Shown here in pieces: positions 4,570 to 37,900 of a stretch of DNA of 64,000 nt. The stretch is from Microthyrium microscopicum (taxonomy: Eukaryota). The DNA lies in NCBI GenBank assembly GCA_010405405.1, contig MU004231.1, positions 1,228,153 through 1,292,152 on the forward strand, written 5' to 3'. The notes beneath the pieces are model-generated. The model was not told the DNA's origin and did not search any database. It saw only the letters and a program-made list of their open reading frames with translations. A program made the translations under genes and the position numbers. The first letter of the stretch is position 1. Every line of letters begins with the position of its first letter.

Positions 4570-7044
4570 CTAAGGTCTATCCGTAGCCGCTGCACCAGCC
4601 GCGGTGTCTGCTCCCAAACAGTCCAAGTCGAAGACTCTGAACTGCCGCAGATCACTACCCAGCAGAACGCATAGTCGCCGCCCCTGACGACCATTCACTT
4701 CGATGCGCACTGGCTGGAATCCATCCTCATCAGTAAATGACATTCGTGTCGCAATTTCCAGAGCATCATCAGTCAACTCGATGTGCCCGTTGACTTGAGG
4801 CGCCGAGCCAGATGGCCACTCCATGCTTTTTGCAGACCCGTCAATGCGGCTGAAGGCAGGACCGACTTTGGAGGAGTCCTTGTCGATAATTGGAATGGCA
4901 ACAAGCCTCGAGGCAGTTGCAGTTTTAAGCAAGACCAGCAATTCATGATCATCCACGAATTGCAGATCCTTGACTTGGCCAGGTAGCTTCACCAAGAAAG
5001 CCTCAACCTCTTGTATGCCATCATTCATATCATCCAGAATATCAGAGTGCAGAACACGACGGACTGTGACCACTGCCGGCTCTTGCTTTGTCGTGGTAGC
5101 CACATACGTCCACAGAGCACCAGCTGGAGTCGAGTCACTGACCGCCATTCGCATATCGCAAGACGCGACCTCAACATCGCCATTCTCAAGCACGATTGCG
5201 CCCGGTATCAGCGCGTTAGCACGCTGCCATTCAGTGATCTGCTCAATCAGCGCAGTATTATGCTGGCACCACTCGTTGTGATACGCCAACAATTTGAGCA
5301 TCTCCTTCTTATGCGCCTCTCCGTTCTTGAACGCTTCAAGTGCTTGTCGGACTACCTCATAGATGTCCGATTTGATTAGAATGGTAGGTGCATCAGCTGG
5401 CGGGCATAAGAAGGCATCTAGTTTGCTTCCATCAAGTCCAGACTCGATATAAGACAACACCAGCGTATGGTCAACACCAGCATCCCGCTCTACAAGCTCC
5501 TGGCCTGCCTGAGTCGCCGCGTCCGCGGTCTGTACTTCAATTTGGTGACGCAGCCATTTTGAAAATGTAGCGAAGCGTTTTTGCTCGACGCTGGCGAATA
5601 GTAGCATGTGATGCGCGAGGAGACGCATACATTTGATAATATCTTGAATGATGAGGAAGGACGATATTGGCACGTCAAAAGCTGGGCTATGTTCGTAATA
5701 TTGCGCCAGGCCTTGTAGATTGGCGAGGACAACGCTGCAGCGATCTAGCGCAGGGAGCAGATTTTCTTGTAGCAGTTCGATGATTTTGGTGTGGCCTTGT
5801 GTGATGGCTTGATCCCAGCGCTTGTGGCCACGTTCAGCAAGCTCGTCTTTTAGCCATTCGTTCATAGTTTCTGAGCAGTAGCCTGTGGCAGCTAGTTGGT
5901 AGAGGCTCTCGCTGAGGCTGGGCTCGTTTTTTTCGGCGAGAGATTCGCTGATGTTGGCTTGGAAGCGGGAGGGGAGGTCGTGAGATGTTTTCCAGTGGTG
6001 GTAGATGGCGAGGATGGATTCGCCGACGTATTTGACTAGAGTGTCTAGTTGTGCTGTTTTGTAATCAATGAAGCTAATGTTTTTGCCTGCCTTTCTGAGG
6101 AATCGTAGCGATATGGGAACCAAGGCCAGAACTGGATTCTTCGTTCCCTGCTGTATCTTCGATAACACCACATGGCAGTGAGCTAGAGGATGTGAGTAGT
6201 GCTTGATATACTCAATCTTGTCGTCAACAGCAAGACCAGGCAGTGCGATACTGCCAATGCTCAACGAGTCGTAAACGATCAACTGCACAACACCGCTAGC
6301 ATTGGACAGCAAGAACGTATTCAAAGCATTGAGCTCCCTCGACGAGCCTCTATGCAACGCAGCATCAAGCAACGTCTGCGACGCAAACAACTCCGCCAAC
6401 GACAACTGCCCATTCTTGTACGCCGAAGAAGGGAGCACCGCAAGCGTAGGCAGTTTAGGCATCAACTCAGTCGCATCAAACGTCGCCAACTGATCTGGCA
6501 ATTCCGCCGGCAAATCCAGCTTCTCCAAATCCGGTTCACGATCCAAAAAATCATCAGCCGAAACAGCCTGCTTCTTGGAATACGAACCCAGCGACTCGCC
6601 ATTCGTCTTCGTCCGCGCTCTCGCAGCCTCAACATCAAGCAAACTCATCCCCCAGCCCAAACACATCGCCGCATTCGATCCAGTAAACTGGCGAAAATTC
6701 TGCAATGCATTGCCCGTCTCTGCTGAAACCACATCGACTTCGCCATCGCTCCACGAGACCGCAATGTATTGACCCAATGAACCATCAGCAAATCTCCATA
6801 TCACTCAGAGTACGCGCTTACCATTATATTTCCAGCACAAAGAAGTGACTTTAGTATCCTTCTTCTTGCGTTGAACGCTGAAAGCGCGCTGCCCGCTAAG
6901 GCGGAACACCTCGACGCGTTCGTCGCGGGTGACGGTCGCGATCAGATCCATTGTGGGGCAGCATCGCAGCAGATTGGGCTGGACTTCCTGTCCCAGTATC
7001 TTGCTCACTATGAGCGATCGGTTTTCCGTCTTCTCATCCGCCAT
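4570..7044 (-). CDS. APC4: Anaphase-promoting complex subunit 4 (Apc4/Cut20); one 48-nt intron 6774-6821
   Basis: N-terminal WD40 (CCPTMDLIAT…VFRLSGQR…WKYNG/QYIAVSWSDG), central Apc4 helical domain (LYQLAATG…EWLKDELAERGHKRWDQA…LQENLLPALDRC…FSKWLRHQI), C-terminal EVNGRQGRRLC. The intron acceptor is non-canonical (see findings). Confidence 0.9.
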
Positions 7045-10910: not shown

Positions 10911-13900
10911 TGTTGTGGTTGAAAGATTGTCGTCACCAATACATTAAGTATTATCAAGCTCGGTACCAGTACTCTAGGGCTCTCAATAGGAAACGCGCGA
11001 CTTTTGTATGTTTGGCACGGGTCACGATGTTTGGTTTGTTGGAGACTGGCTTGGCGTATGACCAAATTTTGGATTGAAGCAGAAAGGTAGTAGTAGAGAG
11101 AGGAATGCAGGTAGGAGTTTTGTGCGACGTTTGGCGAGTAAAAGAGCGACTGTGGTCAGGATGTAAGGGTGCAGCAAACGAGGGTCAAAAGGGTTTGTAA
11201 AAGAGGGCAAAAGAGTGAGTTGAAAGATACAAAAGGGAGAGTAGGACGAAAAATGAGAGTTAAAGGAACGAGAGACAGTTAGGCATTTGAAGACAAAACA
11301 GGAACAGAGGAGGTGGTGAGAATGAGTAGAGAGAGGGATGGGAGAGAGAATTGAAGATGCTGGCTGGGTTGGACAAGGAAAGGAGTAACTGGCAAGACCG
11401 ACTGGCTTGACTGGCTGACAGGCTGGACTGGGAAGGGGCGATGGGGTACTTGGGGGGTTGCACTTGCCCAGTGGCTCTAACGGCGGCAGGAGCGATGGAC
11501 TTGGTTGACTTGGTTGACTTGCAGGGCAGATTGAGGCAGGCACGAGTGCACGACAGTCAGGCACGGCAGGAGTTGATGGAAGCTTGGCAGGCACGACCAA
11601 AAAGGAAGGCGCGAAAGAAGCCGTGATTGGCCGTCTGTTGGATTACAGCGACAAGAGGCTGAAGTAAGAGGCTCACAATGTCCACTCTTGCCTAGTTTTG
11701 GGCTGATCCCTGACACTAATTTGACAACACTCCGTCGATGCTCAATTCTCACTGCTCAGCGCTCACGCTGCTCGACACGCGTGCTGTGCGGGTGCTCATT
11801 GTTTTAACATGGCCATGTGGTGTTGCTTTTGAATCGCCTGTTCTCGCCTGCGAACTCATCTCTCAATAATCTTACCCGCGCTTCTCTGCAGTCATCCGGA
11901 ATCCGGAGCAGTCTTCCCCTTGACCATCAGTGGAGCTTTCAAGCACCTGGGCTGGGCCATGCCAGACAAAACATGCCAAAGTCGATGATTTGCCCTTTAC
12001 CATATTCTTGATCTCAAGAAATGCAAGGCTTGGTCACGATGCCCTCCCGCAAGTAGAACACGCATCCTACTACTGCCCACCCCTTTGACAATATCCACGA
12101 AGTCAAGTCATGAGAGAGAATGCCTGATCAGCAACCATACCGCCGGACTTCGCGCCTAACTTTGAAAGCTCCAGACAAAATTAGCAAACCACGCCAATTA
12201 AACACGCTCCCAATACAGCTTAGCGGCACATGCAGGTACGCCACGTGAAATGTAGCATTCCTAGCCCCCAGAGCTCTAGAGCCCTCTCTCATCGCCTAAG
12301 CTTTCCAAACCAACTCCCAACAAACAGCTCCAAACGTCACCAAACGCATGCATCCCTTGATGTGTGTTCCCTGCTGCCAAACAAATTTGATCCGCTTCAG
12401 CGAGTCAAAACGCTTCCCGCTGATGCATGTAAACTTCTCCAGAGCGCATCCCAACTGACAGCCTTGAAACAATTCACCACGTGTGATGCAAAGCTTTGGA
12501 CCATCAAATTGCCGCGACAGAAAAACACTGCAGTATACATTCCCATTTCTTGATATATGTGCGTCATAAAGCCATCGAAACCAATGGCAAAGAAAGGAAC
12601 AATAACGGACAATTGATATAGCGCTGTCGTTCGCCCTGTGCACTCGGAAATTGGCTTGAAGCAAATTATCTATGGTTCGGTGAATCCCATAGCATCCTGG
12701 ACCGGCTGCCCTGACGAGGGCTATAATATCAATACTGACTTGATATCCTTGCACTTTTTCTGCATCTTGAGCCTCTTTCAATGAACCACTAACTATCAAT
12801 CAGGTAATTGGATCGACTTCTTGGGAAGCTACGTCGTATCTGCCCCTGCAGTGCTCTCGTGAGTGGACCAGACTGGTTCTGATAAATTCTCTTATCATAC
12901 ACCTCTTTGGGACGTTGACATGGTGACAGGTCGGGTATTACTGCAAGGAAATATAGTGGTCTGTACAAGGCAGACTCTTTTCGATTGCTGTGGTCACGGA
13001 ATTGTATATTGGGCCAGAGAATAGGCGGCATAGTTACTATCGGGATTCAATCTAATATGCATCTCCTATCCAACATAGTGGAAGCTTACCTTGAATGATA
13101 TCCTATTGTTGCGAAATCGGTGTGAGAATAAGCTTAGAGTATCTTGTCCCGGTCACTATATATGTTTAAGCTCAGAGGCAGTGCGATAGTATTCAGAGGG
13201 CCCGATATTGGTAATAAAGTACATGTTGCTATAGTGAGGAAACTACTCCGATGTAGTAGCGCTACTTGTTTCTAGTAGTTTATATTGCTAGACTCTTGGT
13301 CTACTATCTTTTATCTTCCGTTGCCAACTGATCGGAAGGATAAAACCACACTCGCGCATGGAGGTTAGCCCAAAGAATATCAGCTAAGTTTCCCCATCAA
13401 TTGATGCACTCAAAGTACCAGCTTCTCAATCGTTCTTCAGCATGTTATTTTATATAGGGATAAAAGCAGTCAGTGCTGAGTCGTCTTCTAATGTAAATAT
13501 CGACGTTGCAACAACCCCCGGTTTAATCGTTTTCGACCATCAAAAGTCTAAGAGAAGTTGCAATTGAGGAAACCAGCACTCGATGATTATGCAACTCACT
13601 TCCACTCTGCTATCCAACATGAGATACAACTATCCAGCTCTTCAAAAAGTGCATAAACTCACGCGTCGTGTAGTGACGAAGCAGTTTCTATGTCTGATGC
13701 AGCTTGAAGACTTCTACACGTCCAAAGTCTCATTGCAATGTTTGCACATATTGACGAGATTGGACTCGGTAATAGCATAGGTACTCGAAGAAATTGAAGA
13801 TGAAGTCGGAAGTGCTTCGGCGTGGCGTTTGACATGAAACCCACCACAATTGCACTTGAAACTCATTCATACTTGGCAGGATCTTTATCAAATTTGAATG

Positions 13901-15407: not shown

Positions 15408-16002
15408 CTTGATATGCGAAAGATGTCAAATTTCTCTGATATACAATTCGTAAACACGGCTCAACGATGGAAATGTCGTGCGCTTTTCGTTGTAGAAGAG
15501 TGGTTGTTAAGAAGTCGGGGTAAAGCTTGACACAACCCGAGGTCAGCGTTGATACATACTTCGCCATTACTGCAAGTCAGACCAGGCAACCTATCTTATG
15601 TACGTACCCACAAAAGAACTACCCTCATCAGGGAGTAGAGACAATATGATTTGCTTCACAGAAGCTACCCCGCATGAAGATATGCGACTATCCGCGGATC
15701 TGGGGCAGCCAATTGGGGATTTAGTATACCGTACCAGGAGCCTGGCTGCGTCTATAGCCTGCCTTAACGTGCGTAAGCTTCTTGAATCTTTCACATGGAG
15801 TACTTGAAAGTGGTATGGAATGAACTAAGATGCTCCCTTAAGCATCGTATTAAATTAGGATCTAAAAGCTAGCGATAGCCAATGTCGTACAGTCTAAAAC
15901 GCAACCAGTATTTGTTTATGTATCATATATCGCTGAACAATTTCGATAACCAGAGTGCCTCCTTTTTGTAGTAGATTGTTTTGAACATGAATGCTTACTC
16001 TT

Positions 16003-18119: not shown

Positions 18120-21100
18120 ATGGCCGTTACTGAGTTGGACGGGGTGTGGAACGATCTGGATCGGTAAGTGAACCCTCTCCTTGCTTGCCGAATCGGGCCT
18201 TGCTAATGTCGGTTTTAGGACGCTTGTATGTCGCCGTTGGCGTGTTTCTGGAGGCCCTCACTAATTCTATAGGGCCAACTGTTTATGATGGGCTTTGATG
18301 GTACTACAGTAACACCTCAAATACGTGAATTGATACAAAGCCATCATATCGGATCTATTTTGTTGACCGCCAAGAATTTACAAAGTAACTCTCCCAGGTT
18401 GCTTTGATATCTTCATCATGCTTATAAGCTTTAGGTGCGGAACATACAACCTCTTTGATATATGAACTACAGAAAACCGCATATGATTCAGGACATCCAG
18501 TTCCCTTACTTATTGGACTCGATCAAGAGAATGGAGGAGTTAATAGCTTGTTCGACGAGATTTATATCCGTCAATATCCCAGCGCAATGGGCATCGCCGC
18601 AACTAGATCTAAAGAGCTAGCATTTGACGTTGCGAAAGCAACAGGAGAAGAGATATCAGTAAGCACTCCATGGAAAGCTATCATCTCTGCCGGTATCTTT
18701 GATGTTCTACTGAAATGGTGCTATCACAAAGTATCGCGGAGCACTTTGGTGGATATCAAACCTGCCAGGCCTTGTATTGGCTACAGTAACATCTTCTATA
18801 TTGAATTAAGCTGACCGACAAATCAGGCATGTGGAATCAATCTGGTGATGGGGCCATGTCTGGATGTGCTCACAAATGCGCGAAATCAACCATTAGGCGT
18901 AAGAACAACTGGAGATGGTAGGTTGAGTTTTGGACCAAAAGGAATAGAAGGCTAATCAAAACAGATCCCCAGCAAGTATCAGATTTCGGTATTGCCTCTA
19001 TGCAAGGCTACAAAGCTGCAGGATTATCAACAATGGGAAAGCATTTTCCATCTTACGGTAATCTAGAGTTTCTCGGATCAGCATTAGATGTTCCTATCAT
19101 TACAGAATCCCTGGAACAACTGCAACTAAGTGCTTTGGTACCATTTCGAAATGCAATCAACCTCGGTCTAGATGCCATGATGGTAGGTGGATGTGCCATG
19201 TCGTCAAAGGGTTTAGAAGTGATGCATGCCTGCCTATCAGACCAGGTTGTAGACGGTCTCTTACGCAAAGATCTACACTTTGATGGTGTAGTAATATCCG
19301 AGTGTCTAGAGATGGAAGCGTTGAGCCACAACATTGGTGTTGGTGGAGGCACTGTCATGGCTGTAAACGCTGGATGTGATCTGATATTGTTATGTCGGTC
19401 ATTCAACGTGCAACAAGACGCTATTAGCGGACTCAAGTCAGGCATTCACAGCGCCATGATAACAATGCCTCGAATACAAAACTCACTAAGACGAGTACTG
19501 CAAATGAAAACAAAATGCACAACCTGGGAGAAGGCTCTCAATCCGCCAGGTTTACCCCTTCTTGGAACTTTACAACCAGCTCACACAGCTTTATCCACCA
19601 AAGCTTACAACAACTCAATCACTATCGTTCGTGATCGAAACAACTACCTACCCCTGACCAATATCCTAGAGTCAGATGAAGAACTATTACTACTTACGCC
19701 GCTGGTCAAACCGCTGGCAGCCTCTGCAGCAGCACGAGCTGTTATCGAGTCACTCGCGGTTGGATCACCAGAGCCAGCCGTATGGGAACGAAGTGCTTCT
19801 GTCATGAGCGGTGAAAGAGTCTTTAGAGAGTTAGGTCGGTCTCTTGCTCGAAGAAGAAATGGAAGAGTACTACATACCTCATACACAGCAAATGGACTCC
19901 GGCCACAACACGAGCAGCTAATCATAAGAGCTAGCGCAGTGATTGTGGTGACAGCGGATGCTAATCGGAATCTATATCAAACTGCTTTTGCAAAGCACGT
20001 TTCCCTGATGATGTCGCATGGCGAAGAGAAAGAAAAACCATTGATAGTCGTGGCTGTTTCATCGCCCTATGATCTGCTCGACGCCACCAAAATAGGGACA
20101 TATGTGGTTACATACGATTTCACAGTACGTCCGTAGACACTATATGCGAAATTGCAAACTTACACCATCTAGGAAACTGCCATGACAAGTCTCGTCAGAG
20201 TACTGTATGGAGACATCATCCCGTCCGGCTGTCTACCAGGCACCATCAGTCAGAGTCAACGGCTCGGGCCTGCACGCCAGCACTGGCTAGTCGAGACCTT
20301 CAATGAAGACCGAGACTCCCACGCTCTCGACGCACTGATCAAAACCCTCATCGATGATACGCCCCAAGCCCAACGCATCGAGCTGTCCGGCGCCACCTCA
20401 ACCTCACTCATCCTGCATCATCCCGACATTCTCGAGTCGCACTTTGTCGTGCGCAATAGCAGCACGCATGCGCTTTTTGGCTTCTGCGCTACTTACTTTT
20501 TCAAAAAGACCGGCACGGGCGTCATCGGCGCCCTCTTTGTCGACCCGGCCCGCCGCAAACTCTCCATTGGCCGCAGTCTGCATAACCGCGCCATCAGCAC
20601 GTTGCTGCAACGTGAGGGCTCCAAGCGCTTCCAGCTCGGTTCTAGACTGCCCTCTGTGTACTTGGGCATTCCCACAGACCACAGCATCGAACGCAAGAGA
20701 CTGCGCTCGTGGTTCGCAAACATGGGCTGGAACACAGCGCTCGCGCGACCCCTCTGCAGCATGATTGCGCGCAACCTGGGCGACTGGTCACCGCCCGAAG
20801 GCATGGCAGCCTCACTACAGAGCGCAGGCGCAGCCTTCGACCTAGTCTACGGCTGGGAGTTTGCGGGCCCAGTGCTAGACCACATAAAGTCGAGCAACCG
20901 ACAAGGACTGGCAGAAGTGTATCAGTTGGCGCTCAAGGACAGTGGAGCATGCGGCATCATTCGAGCCAAGCGGCCAGAAGACGGTGCATTGCTGGGCACG
21001 GTAGTTCTGTATAATCAGCATTCTCAGCTGGCAGAGTATATCCCTGCGATCAAGGATCTCACTGAACTAGCAGGAGGTATAAGCTCGCCGGTCATAGCCC

Positions 21101-30839: not shown

Positions 30840-32988
30840 TGGGAAATGTGATGTACCGAGTAGGGCGTTGCGAGCGGATAGTGTGTGTATGACTGGGAGG
30901 TTCAATGGTGGTATAATTCGACGTCCTTGGGTCTTGGTTCTTTAACACCGTAAAATTGGATTCGTGATCAACGGGATGTTACCGGGACCAGTGAGCAAAG
31001 GAGTCTAGAAGTTTCAAGGGTTTGGTGGTGGGACAGTTGGAGGGTGTTGGCAGTACGAGTGCTATGGGAATGTAGGCCGAATTTTGAGGGCGTGAACGAT
31101 TATGTAGTATGAGACTATGAGTGTAGCGGACAGCGGTTTGGGCAGAGAGAACAATGCCTGAGGCACATCAGCAGAAGAAGAGATACATGTAGTAGGCGAA
31201 TTAGGGAGATGATCAGCCTGGGCATACATTCGAGAAGCAAAGACTGAAAAGTGCAACCTGCTAGAGGCACAGAATCAACACCAGGAACGGTACCTTACCG
31301 CGTAAGGTGGTAGTTGCAGCGGGCAGTAGTGGGTAAGAGAAGGGAATCGGCCAGAACCAAGGACAGACCGACCAGAGCAATGAAGCATGGCAGCGACTCG
31401 CGAAACTGGGTGAACTCTAGAGTGTCATGGTTCCAGCGAGTAGTGCATATTACATTGTTGGTCAAAGCCCAATGAGGCTCTTGAATGGGTGGTGGAGGGT
31501 TGTTTACGAATAAAGGCAGCTTGTTGCTGGACCATGTAACCAGCACCAGGTATTGAAGATGAGAGATCAAGAGTTGCCTGGACTAGAGTAGAGTAGGTAG
31601 TAGAGTGGTCACTTTGTCAGACCCACAGTCCACTGCGAGATCGCCCTATTATTATTATTCAAAGCTTTATACACGGGGGGCTACCATGACATCTTGCGAT
31701 ATATTATCCAATAAACGCACCCGAAGTGGCTCAAGTTATGCTTGGCTTGACCCCAGAGCCCCTGAATAAGAGAGCTGCTGGGCCCCATTACATCTCCAAA
31801 GTCCTGTCTGCCCCATAATTCCTCCTACACTCCACACTCCTACAAACAAAGCCAATCCTACACATCCTATTAAACCCTGAAAAGTAAGATAGCATACTGT
31901 ATCTAAGACTCAAGCTTATCCCAGCCCATTGAGGCCATCCAGGTCCATCACAGCCATCTTCCCCAATCGTCATAGCCGCCACAATCCCCAACATCTACAA
32001 CCTCAGTTTGGAAACTCTATAACCTTTCCCAGCTCATCTTGACTATCAAAGTTCTAGCCTTGAATTCCTCACCTTTCTCTAATCAACTTGCTGTCGCCTC
32101 CAATCTCATTGCCAATCCATCAATATCCCACCCTAGAAACACAACGCTGACTGGCCTTGCCGTGTCTTGCTTAGCTTGGGGTTGCAATCCAACGTTGCAC
32201 GTCACTTAATATCTACGATAGTACCGAATAGACTCGTGTGGCGATCACTTATCCCCCCCACTACTACACGCTGAGTCTACAAGGTAAGCCAAACGCTTAG
32301 TGAGCGGGATGGCCCGTCCAAGGCTTTGACAAGACAAGCTCTAAAACATTCGCGTGATAGCTAAGCTCGTTATGCCCGAAATGTGTATCTAAAGTCTACG
32401 TTGGTGTGCATAGCTTTCGAAATAAGATTAAACATCACATTTGCACTACCTCAGAGTGCTACCTGGAACGGACTCGTGGTGTCGTGTGTACTCGTATGCT
32501 TCTGCTTTCTCGGTGTTGTTGTCGTTGCAAGGTGAACCAGCAGGGTGGTATTCGAGCTGCGCCGTATTTCACTCCGAGATTGCATGTTACTGTACCACGT
32601 CGTTGGTAAGAAGTAGCTATGATGAAGCGGGGAAAGGGAGCTTCTTCGGAAAAAGCAAGTTTGAAACAATATCACTGCCGTGGAATGCGGATGTGCTCGC
32701 CAGCTTTCAGGTGCTGAGATGATGGCATCAATTACAGATCAGATTGGCATATCAACCGTCAGGCAAAATGACTGGCGCCACTTCCATCTACTGCGCTGTA
32801 ATTCACACTGTAATCGAATGTGATGGCAGCCAGCGGAGTGAAAGTAATCGCCCTTCATTTCGTCCAGCCCATTTTGGCCTACAAGGAGAAGAATTTAGGA
32901 ATATTACTGGTCACAAGACCTATCATTAACGTCGCAACTGCTAAAAACTAGGAAATGCGTCCCACTATTAACATCAATTTTAAACCCC

Positions 32989-34945
32989 TTATGCTTTCTC
33001 CGTGGTGGTGGCATCCTCCAACGTCGCGCCCTTTGAAACTGTAGGCGCATGGGCTATATGAGTAGGGGCAACATCCGCAACCGTCTCATCCGAAAATTGT
33101 AAATCATCCGTCAATGGCACGGAGTCCTTGATTTTGAACCAGATCAATGGGAGGGCGAGCACTAATCCACCAGCTAGGAGACCCCAACATGTACCGAGGA
33201 AGCTCATGAATGAGATTGCGTAGATGCCGTCTAGAGAGAATGAAATTGCAGAACCTGAGACGGGTTAGTAAATGCCATATTGTCACACCGGCGAGCTCCA
33301 TGTGCTACGTTATCTATCGAGTGATTTAATTCCCATTGCATTCGATGAGCGGTCAAACGATTGCCGCCATCCTTGGGAAATAGAGCATTCGATAATAAAC
33401 GCAGCATATGGGAGCCATCGAGGCTAATGGGAGTATGCCAGTTGATAAGAGTCTTACCTGCTGATTGCATTCCCTTGTAAAAACCTGCAAAATTGGCCAG
33501 TTTTCGTCCATTGTTTGACAATGAGCCCATATACCAATACACGCAAGTCTGGAAAGCTGCATCGTAAAATCCATAAAACATGTAGAGGAACATGGGTCCA
33601 ACATAGCCACTGTCAGACCAATCGGTGAAGGCATAGGTCTTGGAGCTGGTCTCTGCGCGCGTGTATGTGCGCTGATACGCATATCCACCACCCCATATTG
33701 CAAAAGTGAGAACCATAAGGACTATCCAGGCAACGCGGGCGCGTACTGAACGACGCACTCCTGGAATTTATTAGTATAAAGTCACGTTCAAGCCTTGTGA
33801 ACGCGGTTTGATGTCTTCCAATGGGACCAAAATTATGAAACAGGTCATGGATGCCATCGCATTCGATGTCACCCATAGCACTCGATCCGGAACGCATCGT
33901 ATGGTAGCCATCGAGTGCGATGGGAGCCATCAAGTTTTTGGAGGAATGCGCAGAGGCTATGAAATGGGTCTAACAGGGGATTCTTACCTTGGTAATCCAA
34001 CGCGAATCCAAAAATATAGGCTCCAACTATTTGCATCATCCAGTATAAGACGTTATTGAGTGCCTTGGTGCGCGTCGTGAACTTGGCACCATTGAAACCA
34101 TTGAATTGATATGTGTAAAAGAAGTTGGAGGCGAAGAACATGGGGAACATAAATAGAATGTATGGATCGGTGCGGAATGTTTGGAAAAGTCCAGTGATTT
34201 CCGTCTTCCAGGTGGGATTCTTCATAAGAATAACTCTGCTCCCATCGCTTCGGATAACGCTATGAGCATCCACAAGAAGCCAAGCCATGGCAGCTCCGAT
34301 GAGAGTCAAAATGAGGAATCCGATATATGTTCCATCGCTGACAGTTGAATTTGTCCTGACATGGATATTTTGGCCTAGAGGAATCAAAGCGCCAATGACT
34401 GCTCCGAGATTGAAGACCATCCAAAAGAAACTGATGTATCGACCCTTTGATTTCTCCGGAGGATAACTCATCATAATTGCGCCTTGTGCGGTCCAAAGTA
34501 GACCAGCGCAAAGACCCAAGAAAAATCCAGCAAAGATTGTAAAGCCCTTGTTCGCATTGTGAGAATAACTGAGGAAACTGGCGACGTATATAGAGTATCC
34601 GAGACCACCGAATGAGAGCGCAAACTTGACTCCGAGTACGTTGGCGATACTTCCGGCAAAGAAACCGACGACCGCAAAGGTAGAGTAGAGAGCAACATTG
34701 GCATCATCAGCTGCGGTCTTGTCGACTTGTCCACCGCCTCCTATGCCGCCCAAAGCATTGAACATGCCTGGGCACATGAAGCAGACTAAAGAGACAATGA
34801 CCAGCTGGATTTGCGGAGAAGCATAATGTGGGATCGTAAAGGGTCCAATGCGCCTGACGCGGTATTTCCAGCCCGTGGGCCAGTCAGCGGGAGCTTCGTT
34901 CGTAGATGATGGGCCTGATACGGCCTTCTCTGGCATTTCGGCCAT
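32989..34945 (-). CDS. NGT1: UNC-93-like MFS transporter, probable GlcNAc transporter; introns 33761-33987 and 33255-33457
   Basis: PGMFNALGGIGGGG, ANVALYSTFA, WTAQGAIMMSYP, FWMVFNLG, MFPMFFASNFFYTYQFN, GPMFLYMFYG, FYKGMQSAG motifs of the Ngt1/UNC-93 family; adjacent to the GlcNAc kinase. Orthology versus paralogy is not tested. Confidence 0.8.
33255..33457 (-). repeat. Long (203 nt) intron with inverted-repeat motifs, homologous to the neighbouring intron
   Basis: 33385-33433 aligns without gaps to 33878-33926 at 37/49 positions; CCCATTGCATTCGATG at 33332-33347. Confidence 0.75.
33761..33987 (-). repeat. Long (227 nt) intron with 19-nt-period direct and inverted repeats
   Basis: ccatcgcattcgatg (33854), cccatagcactcgat (33872), inverted catcgagtgcgatggg (33909), partial catcaagt (33928). 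Confidence 0.8.
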
Positions 34946-37900
34946 GGTGCTGTCGAGGGGAGCGGGTGGGAGAAGGGTATAGACTGGCGACGCGATGAGG
35001 ACTCGAGCTAGATGACGGAGCACTTGCAATCAATAAGATAGGAGGAATTGACCAAGTGCTTGAGGAGATGCCAGACAGGGATGCAAGTGATAGTAATCAA
35101 TGAAGTAAGGGATGAGGCGAATGAGAAGGGTAATAATTTAGATTAGGCCTGGAAGAGCTGATTTGGGGTCACACAACTTGGCGCCAGCAGTTCACGATGA
35201 TGGACACAGAACATTGAAGGCGGGCAACCGGGTAAATAAAGAAAATGAGAGGAGGCTTACTCTGTGACAAGCCGCGAAGGCGCAAGCACAAGTGTACGGA
35301 GTACTACTCCCTAGATTCCTGAACAGACTGGAGTAGGAGGAGGTAGGTGTAACATTGATGCAGAAGGACGAGTGGGGCACGCGATATCCTTGCTGTTGGC
35401 TGATGTACGGTATGGCTCTCTTGCATCCTACTCTAGTCTAGTCTCTACCGAACCCTTTTTCTCCAGTTCTGACTTCCCTCTCTTCTCCAAAAGACCTCTG
35501 TTACTCCACCACTCGGTACTGGTACCAGTTGGCCAGTCCGTCGAACCACCAGCGGACAGTGGAGGCCTCACAGCTCCTGCCTTTACCCTTACAGGAAATC
35601 GGGGTGCCGATCTCTCCTCTACCTTATCGCTGTCGCATCCAATTGTATTGCGCATATGAAATGCAACCCTGGATTTCGGGGGACCATTTTGGATTACTCT
35701 GGAGGGACTTTATTTTTGGACCGTATACATACATTGGAAGGTTGATGCTGATAGCTAGATTACTAACCCATGGTCCTTAGCACTACACGGACCTAATGGC
35801 GCGGACTACATCTAAAGGCACGAAAACAGGCAAGATCTTAACTTACTTCAATTATTAAGACATACGTTATATAGCTAAATTAAGTACGTCTTCTATATCT
35901 AATTTATATCCTCTTATCTTCTAAATTCTACGACGTATATTTAAATATATAGTAAAAATGCTAGCTTATTTAGAGGTTTATATATAAATAAATTAGGGGC
36001 TAAACTATAGACCTCCTAAACCTTATGTAATTAAGTAATATAATTAGATAATAAATAATAAGCTTTAATAATAAATAAGTAATCTAAAAGACAATAAATT
36101 AATATAGAATAAATATTAGTTATAGACTAATAGAAAGTAAATCTAAATAATTTAGTATGCTTATAGTAGCTAATATAAAATAATAAATAGCTATAAGTAT
36201 TATTAAACTATTAGGCATACTTAAAGTATTAAATTTAAATTAATAGATAGTAATTATCTATAAAGAATATAGTGACTATTAAAATATAATAAGAAAGTAA
36301 AAAGTAACTAAGTTAACTAGATATTAGCATCTCTATTACTATTAGTTTAACTATATATTTTTAAAATAGTTCTTACTATATAAAATAATAGTTTCTATAT
36401 ACTATAAAGATATATAGCTATATACTAGTTATTTATAGTAAGTAGTATAATTTTTAATATTATAGTTAACTTTCTAGCTAGAACAAAGTTATTATTAAAC
36501 TTATAAATAATACTATAATTAGATTACTAGTAAGTAAGATTTTTAAATTTATATAAGTTTAACTACTAAGCTATTATTTTATAATTTAGGCCTACTATTA
36601 TAATTTCCTTATTAGGAATATCTTATAAATAAGACTTCTTTAGGTTAGATTATTTACTAGCCTATACTTCTACTCTATAACTACTAAACTAAGATTAGGG
36701 AGCCTTAAGAACTTCTTCTTCTCTTAATCTTTATTACCTCTATCTATTATACTTTTATACGTATTACTCTACGCTTATTAATTTAATTTAATACTATACT
36801 ACTTTATCTTTTAAAGTTAGCCCTAAGAAACTTCTTACTTCTTATTATTATTATAGCTAGCTTATTATTCTAAGTAGTATAGAAATAAATAAAGAGAAAG
36901 AGTTATTTAGCCTAAATTAAAGTTATTAACTATAGTTTAAGAACTATTAATAAGATTTATTACCTCTCTAACCTAGTACTCTTATTTAAGAGAGAGTATT
37001 ATTAGCTCTATTAGACGTTAATCTCTTAGTAACTACGTCTAGAAGGCTTTTATAAATTCTATTATTATTACTAATAGAAATCTAAGGCCCTTATATATCT
37101 ATTTTATTAGATATATTTAAGTTTCTATTTTTTAGTATTATAGTAATTAAGGCTACTTACCTTCTTAGAACTTTTTATAAATAATACTAATAGTATACTT
37201 TATACTACCCTAAGTAGAATTTTAGCTTACTAGTTAAAGTTAAAGTACTAGCGTCTTTTAAAAGATCTTCTTTAGTTTCTTTTTCTAAGAAGAGGAAATA
37301 ATTACTTATATTATCTATTTTAGATAGTAAATTTAATAAACGATTCTTTATTACTTTTTCTATTATAAGAGATTAAGATAGTACCTATATTATAAGCTAG
37401 TATAGTAATCTAGATTCTTTAATCTATTTATTTACTAAATCTACCCTAATTAATAAATTTAATAGCTTCTATAACTAAAATATTTAGGCTTATGCTAGTA
37501 GTTATTATTAATTAGCTAAAATCTTACTTTATAGTAATAGTTTTAATTAAAGTTCTAATAAAGAGATTAAAGACTTAGAAGATAAAGTTACTAAAGGCCT
37601 TATAGTTACTAATCTTACCTTATCTATTTAGGAATAGAACTAAGTATATAATATTACTTAAGGCTATATATATAATAACTTTATATAAATCTTAACTATT
37701 AAGATAGATAGATAAAATTAAACGCTAATCTTTAATACTTTAAAGAAGGCTAAGACTATAGTTAAAGAAGCTATACCTATTAATAATTATATTAATAAGT
37801 TTTATAATCTCTCTTATATTATTAAGAAGTTATATAATTAAAATATTTATTCTAATATAGTTTATAATTATAAGAAAATAACTATAGTTAATTATTACTC

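Follow-up and report, generated by a model that had tools for sequence, protein, structure and literature searches.

Among the closest described systems are the introner-like elements of Dothideomycetes. Genes with two gained elements 145-626 bp apart were reported for them (PMC4457414, Collemare et al. 2015), and their stable hairpin was recounted from van der Burgt et al. 2012 by Fekete et al. 2021 (PMC8469720). The introner screen of PMC9860276 (Gozashti et al. 2022) demands that similarity start within 10 intronic bases of both intron boundaries, and its authors attribute many cases of likeness between introns to transposable elements that inserted secondarily into the interior of an intron. 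In Supplementary Table 4 of the screen, Microthyrium_microscopicum_CBS_115976 is scored with ie = 0. Dothistroma septosporum, a reported carrier of introner-like elements, is also scored 0, which indicates that the screen misses degenerate families. Here, a window of 64,000 nucleotides (nt) of Microthyrium microscopicum (assembly GCA_010405405.1, contig MU004231.1, forward-strand positions 1,228,153 to 1,292,152) was analysed around a transporter gene that is interrupted by two long introns. The main new result is that the interior of intron 1, 73 nt in length, is multi-copy. The reading that a palindromic repeat family resembling MITEs (miniature transposable elements with inverted repeats) is lodged inside two lineage-specific introns is given about an even chance. 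The parts of the gene, in positions of the window, are the following.

32989..34945, minus strand: coding region of the UNC-93/MFS (DUF895-type) transporter, three exons, 508 amino acids, spliced by script
34945..33988, minus strand: exon 1 of the transporter gene of Microthyrium microscopicum
33761..33987, minus strand: intron 1, 227 nt, phase 1 in Gly320, GTAAGAATC...ACTAAT...CAG
33458..33760, minus strand: exon 2, 303 nt or 101 codons, in frame, between both repeat-bearing introns
33255..33457, minus strand: intron 2, 203 nt, phase 1 in Gly421, GTAAGACTC...TACTAAC...CAG
33254..32989, minus strand: exon 3 of the transporter gene of Microthyrium microscopicum

Contigs of four public sequencing runs were aligned to the window at 80% likeness. 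Two of these runs (X3 and X1) are DNA runs and possibly the source of the assembly. From them, 68 and 65 contig records aligned, respectively, and all but a few fell on 33854-33926. At position 33888 a letter differing from that of the window was found in 33 contigs of X3 and in 32 of X1, which implies at least 32-33 other copies of the 73-nt core. Contig counts were used for this purpose, since summed contig depth (for example 39582.8 versus 858.7 in X3) is not a copy number. Most pieces were 80-95% alike; in X1 the identity classes 99 and above, 95-99, 90-95 and under 90 held 5, 2, 16 and 42 records, respectively.

The ends of the repeated unit were found to be sharp. In both DNA runs the pieces started at 33854, 33855 or 33873 and ended at 33925 or 33926, so that similarity to the other copies ends 61 and 93 nt inside intron 1. 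Depth in the bins on both flanks of the core, where the remainder of intron 1 and both splice sites lie, was that of one contig, so that what is repeated is the inside of intron 1 and not the whole intron. As the identity classes include 95-99 and 99 and above, even the closest copies end at the core. The contexts of the copies were read from 8 pieces per run among the matches listed. Flank consensuses (30 nt, agreement 0.5-0.66) suggested that the family likeness may continue for about 15 nt further on each side, to about 105-115 nt in total, in agreement with an imperfect palindrome at 33827-33941. The joints 'goes back 35/68', together with the letters between the joints, showed that some copies have extra units, as expected of a foldback repeat built of units. 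In the bin of intron 2 (33356-33439) an extra summed depth of only about one to two contigs relative to the adjoining single-copy bins was observed (2257 versus 858.7 in X3, 186 versus 97.8 in X1), which fits an older, degenerate copy.

Copies were also found outside the two introns. From run X5, 32 records aligned, including a copy at 4947-5018 of a 7806-nt contig (depth 268) and another in a 1661-nt contig (depth 428). The position of these copies within long, deep contigs indicates that at least two remain unspliced in abundant transcripts and that the family is not purely intronic. The two-arm repeat pattern had no match in the viral or prokaryote contig collections, and nothing on repeats or introns of Microthyrium microscopicum appeared in the titles or abstract beginnings of the literature matches listed. 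As a separate observation, run X6, which belongs to another study and is labelled as a different organism, contained low-depth contigs identical to the window (32773-33242 and 34988-35100). Several repeat copies were present in it as well, which points to the same or a very close fungus at low abundance in that sample.

In and beside the gene, four features of the repeat were recognised, listed here without strand.

33854..33926: multi-copy 73-nt core, with two direct units and one inverted unit of CCCATCGCAYTCGATGG type
33838..33939: extended imperfect palindrome around the core, with 51-nt arms, 71% complementary, no spacer
33333..33433: degenerate repeat copy in intron 2, colinear with the intron 1 copy with indels; 33384-33433 is 76% identical to 33877-33926
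32813..32832: solo inverted unit 157 nt 3' of the stop codon, 18/20 (90%) complementary to 33848-33867

The core shared by the two introns, first described as 37/49 identical positions, was borne out in slightly larger form. By self-comparison and by blastn of the introns, 33384-33433 and 33877-33926 were identical at 38 of 50 positions without gaps, a score that none of 1000 dinucleotide shuffles reached (maximum 32). According to blastn, this alignment starts at intron positions 62 (intron 1) and 25 (intron 2); beyond it and the splice signals, no alignment between the introns was obtained. Self-comparison gave a further repeat match in the intron 2 copy at 33333-33347. When up to 3 mismatches were allowed, the 16-mer motif CCATCGCATTCGATGG was found 8 times in the window, where 0.29 occurrences would be expected, and 6 of these lie within the transporter gene or next to it. 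The two matches at 12572 and 47069 were set aside as chance, their context having no wider similarity. With up to 2 mismatches the motif occurred 4 times in the window versus 0 in 353,542 bases of 80 related loci. The extra copy 3' of the gene that had been noticed from the letters was confirmed as the solo unit, which also fits CCATCGCATTCGATGG with 3 mismatches. The gene contig of X5 reaches only 32919, short of this unit, and is uninformative on whether the transcript extends to it.

Units were present in both orientations in both introns, in accordance with the direct and inverted motif copies claimed earlier. The claimed 19-nt period did not hold as such: a single adjacent pair of units (33854 and 33873) was found, and Tandem Repeats Finder reported no array in 33200-34050. 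The proposed ability of each intron to form a hairpin was upheld, with fold z-scores against shuffles of -2.29 for intron 1 and -3.34 for intron 2. Besides the 51-nt arms, intron 1 has shorter inverted arms of 22 nt (86% complementary, 33865-33886 and 33910-33931). The stretch 33838-33945 folds at -38.6 kcal/mol with a z-score of -3.67, and the plus strand gave -2.98. The inverted arms, together with the better than shuffled folding of both strands, indicate a palindrome at the DNA level. No match was found in Rfam for 32500-35200 with E values up to 1.

Both introns are removed from the mRNA as annotated. In one 2430-nt contig of X5 they were cleanly spliced: the segments 35100..33987, 33759..33456 and 33252..32919 are connected by the joints 'skips 227' and 'skips 203', which read CT..AC on the plus strand. 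The RNA nature of this run is a guess; its contig nonetheless spans both splice junctions. Both introns begin with GTAAGA(A/C)TC, end in CAG, carry a branch motif (ACTAAT or TACTAAC) about 10 nt upstream of the acceptor and share an AG|G context and the same phase, and the protein alignment runs seamlessly across both junctions. The coordinates, lengths, phase and ends given by the sequence-only reading thus agreed with the sequence and with the splice joints. Its statement that the introns are about four times the local norm was right in direction, both being clearly longer than the others, with the factor itself only roughly tested. A strict intron-finding script gave 8 candidates in the window, of which four well-supported short introns (47-74 nt) and the two of the transporter gene were trusted. 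Among the 50 introns scripted in related loci, 46 were no longer than 113 nt, and the median length was about 61 nt. The strict script also gave two more long candidate introns, at 15825-15998 (minus strand, 174 nt) and 18659-18972 (plus strand, 314 nt), whose flanking open codons number only 77-80 and on one side 387; blastn-short found no match of 10 nt or more between either of them and introns 1 and 2.

The host gene is predicted to encode an UNC-93/MFS protein. The spliced three-exon product of 508 residues was identical to the database protein P0023, 'MFS general substrate transporter [Microthyrium microscopicum]', and Pfam assigned exon 1 to MFS_1 (4.8e-13) and UNC-93 (2.7e-12). The earlier label of an NGT1-like transporter of N-acetylglucosamine (GlcNAc) found no support: the database names listed for its relatives are MFS, DUF895 or UNC93-like, none mentions NGT1 or GlcNAc, and in the literature matches listed Ngt1 never appeared together with DUF895 or UNC93-like.

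Intron positions were compared in metagenome contigs scanned with an alignment of 30 relatives, which gave 80 loci of 52-68% identity; Venturia and Tothia fuscella (P0028, 76% identity over exon 1), the nearest relatives with a name, are outside this set. Junctions were read by tblastn and a script. It was found that 56 of the 80 loci are interrupted and hence genomic, and the remaining 24 are uninterrupted, probably transcripts and uninformative. An intron at codon 320 occurred in 0 of the 56 interrupted loci, and one at codon 421 in 0 of the 53 that reach it. Around the first site, residues 310-330 were uninterrupted in 55 of the 56 loci, and the remaining one (L046) ends at residue 328, beyond the site. 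Four truncated database proteins (P0029, P0047, P0120 and P0140) gave the same picture, reading through the first site and all ending in ...VYW. The introns nearest codon 421 lie at 415/416 (L031, L045, L051 and L080) and at about 424-435 (L064, L070 and L074). Relatives have introns at about codons 25, 60, 94, 187, 383, 387, 395, 416, 427 and 444, none of which is present in the Microthyrium gene. The gene thus shows complete intron turnover, with none of the positions of its relatives and two private ones.

Two further observations were made on the relatives. Three intron positions lie within 12 codons, namely 383 in phase 0 (L035 and L039), 387 in phase 1 (L010 and L016) and 395 in phase 2 (L009, L020 and L022), a cluster spread over separate groups of relatives, which stems either from recurrent gain at a hotspot or from sliding of introns. 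Long introns occur in L067 (1278-1584, 307 nt), L031 (2188-2367, 180 nt) and L080 (958-1082, 125 nt), at the ordinary positions 94 and 395; the Microthyrium 16-mer is absent from all three.

Taken together, the introns are spliced, the core is multi-copy and sharp-ended, its flanks are single-copy, and the two positions are absent from the relatives. As to its kind, the repeat would be a small foldback element or else an introner-like family in degenerate form. The first of these, a MITE-like family residing in young introns, is drawn from the dozens of copies, the sharp ends, the single-copy flanks, the unit structure, the inverted arms and the copies in other transcribed DNA. Under this reading, the transporter gene would have lost all introns seen in its relatives and come to carry two at positions of its own. 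Each of the two would harbour in its interior one copy of a non-coding repeat, short (about 75-115 nt) and made of palindromic units of about 19 nt. The family would be a MITE-like or foldback non-autonomous element, presumably mobile, and non-coding transcribed DNA, for instance introns or untranslated regions, would tolerate its copies. The introns would have come first and the repeat second, with the copy in intron 1 better preserved (other copies 80-99% alike) and that in intron 2 older and degenerate. Such insertions would account for the length of the introns, for the likeness of their middle parts and for their self-complementarity. About 100 extra nt are probably folded away by the central hairpin, which would keep the splice sites effectively close and splicing efficient.

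Several points weigh against this reading. The family has the short, non-coding, multi-copy and inverted-arm character of MITEs and foldback elements with exact termini not fixed, and no target-site duplication was evident by eye around 33827-33941, where the flank consensuses cover only 30 nt at an agreement of 0.5-0.66. Self-comparison revealed more degenerate units outside the 73-nt core. The absence of both intron positions from the related loci (0/56 and 0/53) gives the host introns a lineage-specific character that a plain secondary insertion leaves unexplained. Moreover, that a family of tens of copies in a 37-Mb genome should have inserted twice in a single gene, once in each of its two introns, with 303 nt between them, is a strong coincidence. 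It requires local hopping, or else a selection effect, in that the scan brings rarities to light. Two intron gains and two insertions amount to four events, where an element that creates introns needs two. Both introns also share the 5' end GTAAGAnTC, although GTAAGA begins only 3 of the 50 scripted introns of the related loci, and the published genes with two closely spaced gained elements (PMC4457414) offer a precedent for such a pair.

The most serious alternative is an introner-like origin, in which each intron was born by the seamless insertion of a hairpin element at an AG|G after the gene had lost its introns. The palindromic core would have stayed alike among copies, with the outer parts degenerating. 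This origin is regarded as possible, and less probable than secondary insertion. Many of the points just raised speak for it, namely the new positions, the parsimony of two events, the shared start and the degenerate units beyond the core. In addition, the junctions are seamless, with AG|G contexts and the same phase, and the introns are three to four times as long as the short ones, with stable folds and a multi-copy core. Both introns thus share with introners that they are spliced, sit seamlessly at new positions and are long with a stable predicted structure. Published precedents are the genes with two elements already mentioned and, according to PMC8469720, symmetrical proliferating introns in Hypoxylaceae, where three genes carry two. 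Intron 2 lies five codons from the 415/416 site, at which 4 loci have ordinary introns, in line with the 'parallel gain within 15 bp' described in PMC4457414.

Against an introner-like origin stands the extent of the similarity. The other copies align to 33854-33926 only, and even those of the 95-99% class leave 61 and 93 nt of single-copy intron on the two sides, so that similarity does not start within the 10 bases used in PMC9860276. Microthyrium microscopicum was scored with ie = 0 in that screen, although degenerate families escape it. Long transcript contigs contain at least two unspliced copies, and some rare coincidences are to be expected from a scan of the kind that brings them up. 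A fuller version, in which both introns were born from an undescribed hairpin introner-like family of Microthyriales after loss of the ancestral introns, with a core needed for propagation and decaying ends, is likewise regarded as possible, and less probable than secondary insertion. The sequence-only reading had put forward a new introner or miniature mobile family that hit the gene twice. The multi-copy, hairpin-forming miniature family (33 and 32 contigs at 33888), the spliced introns and their private positions stood up; the introner part did not fare as well, with only the interior repeated, single-copy splice-site bins and at least two copies in transcript contigs.

Intragenic duplication, in which reverse splicing or a local duplication would have placed a copy of one repeat-bearing intron elsewhere in the gene, is considered improbable. 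It would account for the same phase, the GTAAGAnTC start, the similar branch and acceptor regions and the colinear core in the same orientation. However, the introns are unalignable outside the 50-nt core and the splice signals. At 33888 and 33890, moreover, the intron 2 copy has A, the common letter of the family, and intron 1 has C and G, which argues for two separate family members rather than for one copied from the other.

The weakest alternative, also proposed from the sequence, is that paired intronic hairpins regulate skipping or back-splicing of exon 2, and it is regarded as very improbable: exon 2 is in frame with 303 nt, so that its skipping would preserve the reading frame, and units lie in both orientations in both introns, but the predicted pairing of the introns across the exon is at chance level (duplex energy equalled by 33 of 300 shuffles), strong self-pairing within each intron competes with it, Rfam gave no match, the presence of the same sequence at dozens of unrelated places argues that it was not shaped for the transporter gene, and only the two canonical joints, with no exon-2-skipped or back-splice joint, were among the X5 joints listed, which as contigs cannot prove absence.

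If the repeat merely landed in the introns, as in the favoured MITE-like reading, it is an ordinary small mobile element of a little-studied fungus, useful mainly to illustrate in detail the 'secondary insertion' false positives removed by introner screens. If it made the introns, introner-like intron birth would be extended to another order of Dothideomycetes. Screens for splice-site similarity would then miss families whose lasting mark is an internal hairpin, which bears on how many 'regular' fungal introns started in this way. Under either reading, intron turnover in the gene is complete and cleanly seen.

In comparison with known systems, the introns resemble the introner-like elements of Dothideomycetes (PMC4457414), which come from the same fungal class and are long, multi-copy spliceosomal introns at new positions, seamless and in some cases two to a gene, a few hundred bp apart. 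In those elements the likeness extends through the entire intron, and they serve as introns of unrelated genes, whereas the Microthyrium repeat covers no more than 73 nt of the intron interior, is flanked by unique sequence and has at least two unspliced copies. The symmetrical sister (stw)introns of Hypoxylaceae (PMC8469720) also have inverted arms, tens of copies, new positions and several genes with two. They differ in being near-complete palindromes that reach the intron termini and in including nested introns; the Microthyrium palindrome is central and the termini are unique. The transposon-derived introners of PMC9860276 (Gozashti et al. 2022), which have terminal inverted repeats or target-site duplications, are similarly short, non-autonomous, intron-associated and provided with inverted arms. 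By definition their similarity has to start within 10 intronic bases of both boundaries, unlike that of the Microthyrium pair, from a genome scored without introners. Ordinary MITE or foldback elements inserted secondarily share with the repeat its short, non-coding, palindromic and multi-copy nature, its sharp internal ends and its copies in other transcribed DNA, and differ from it in the lineage-specific introns that host it here.

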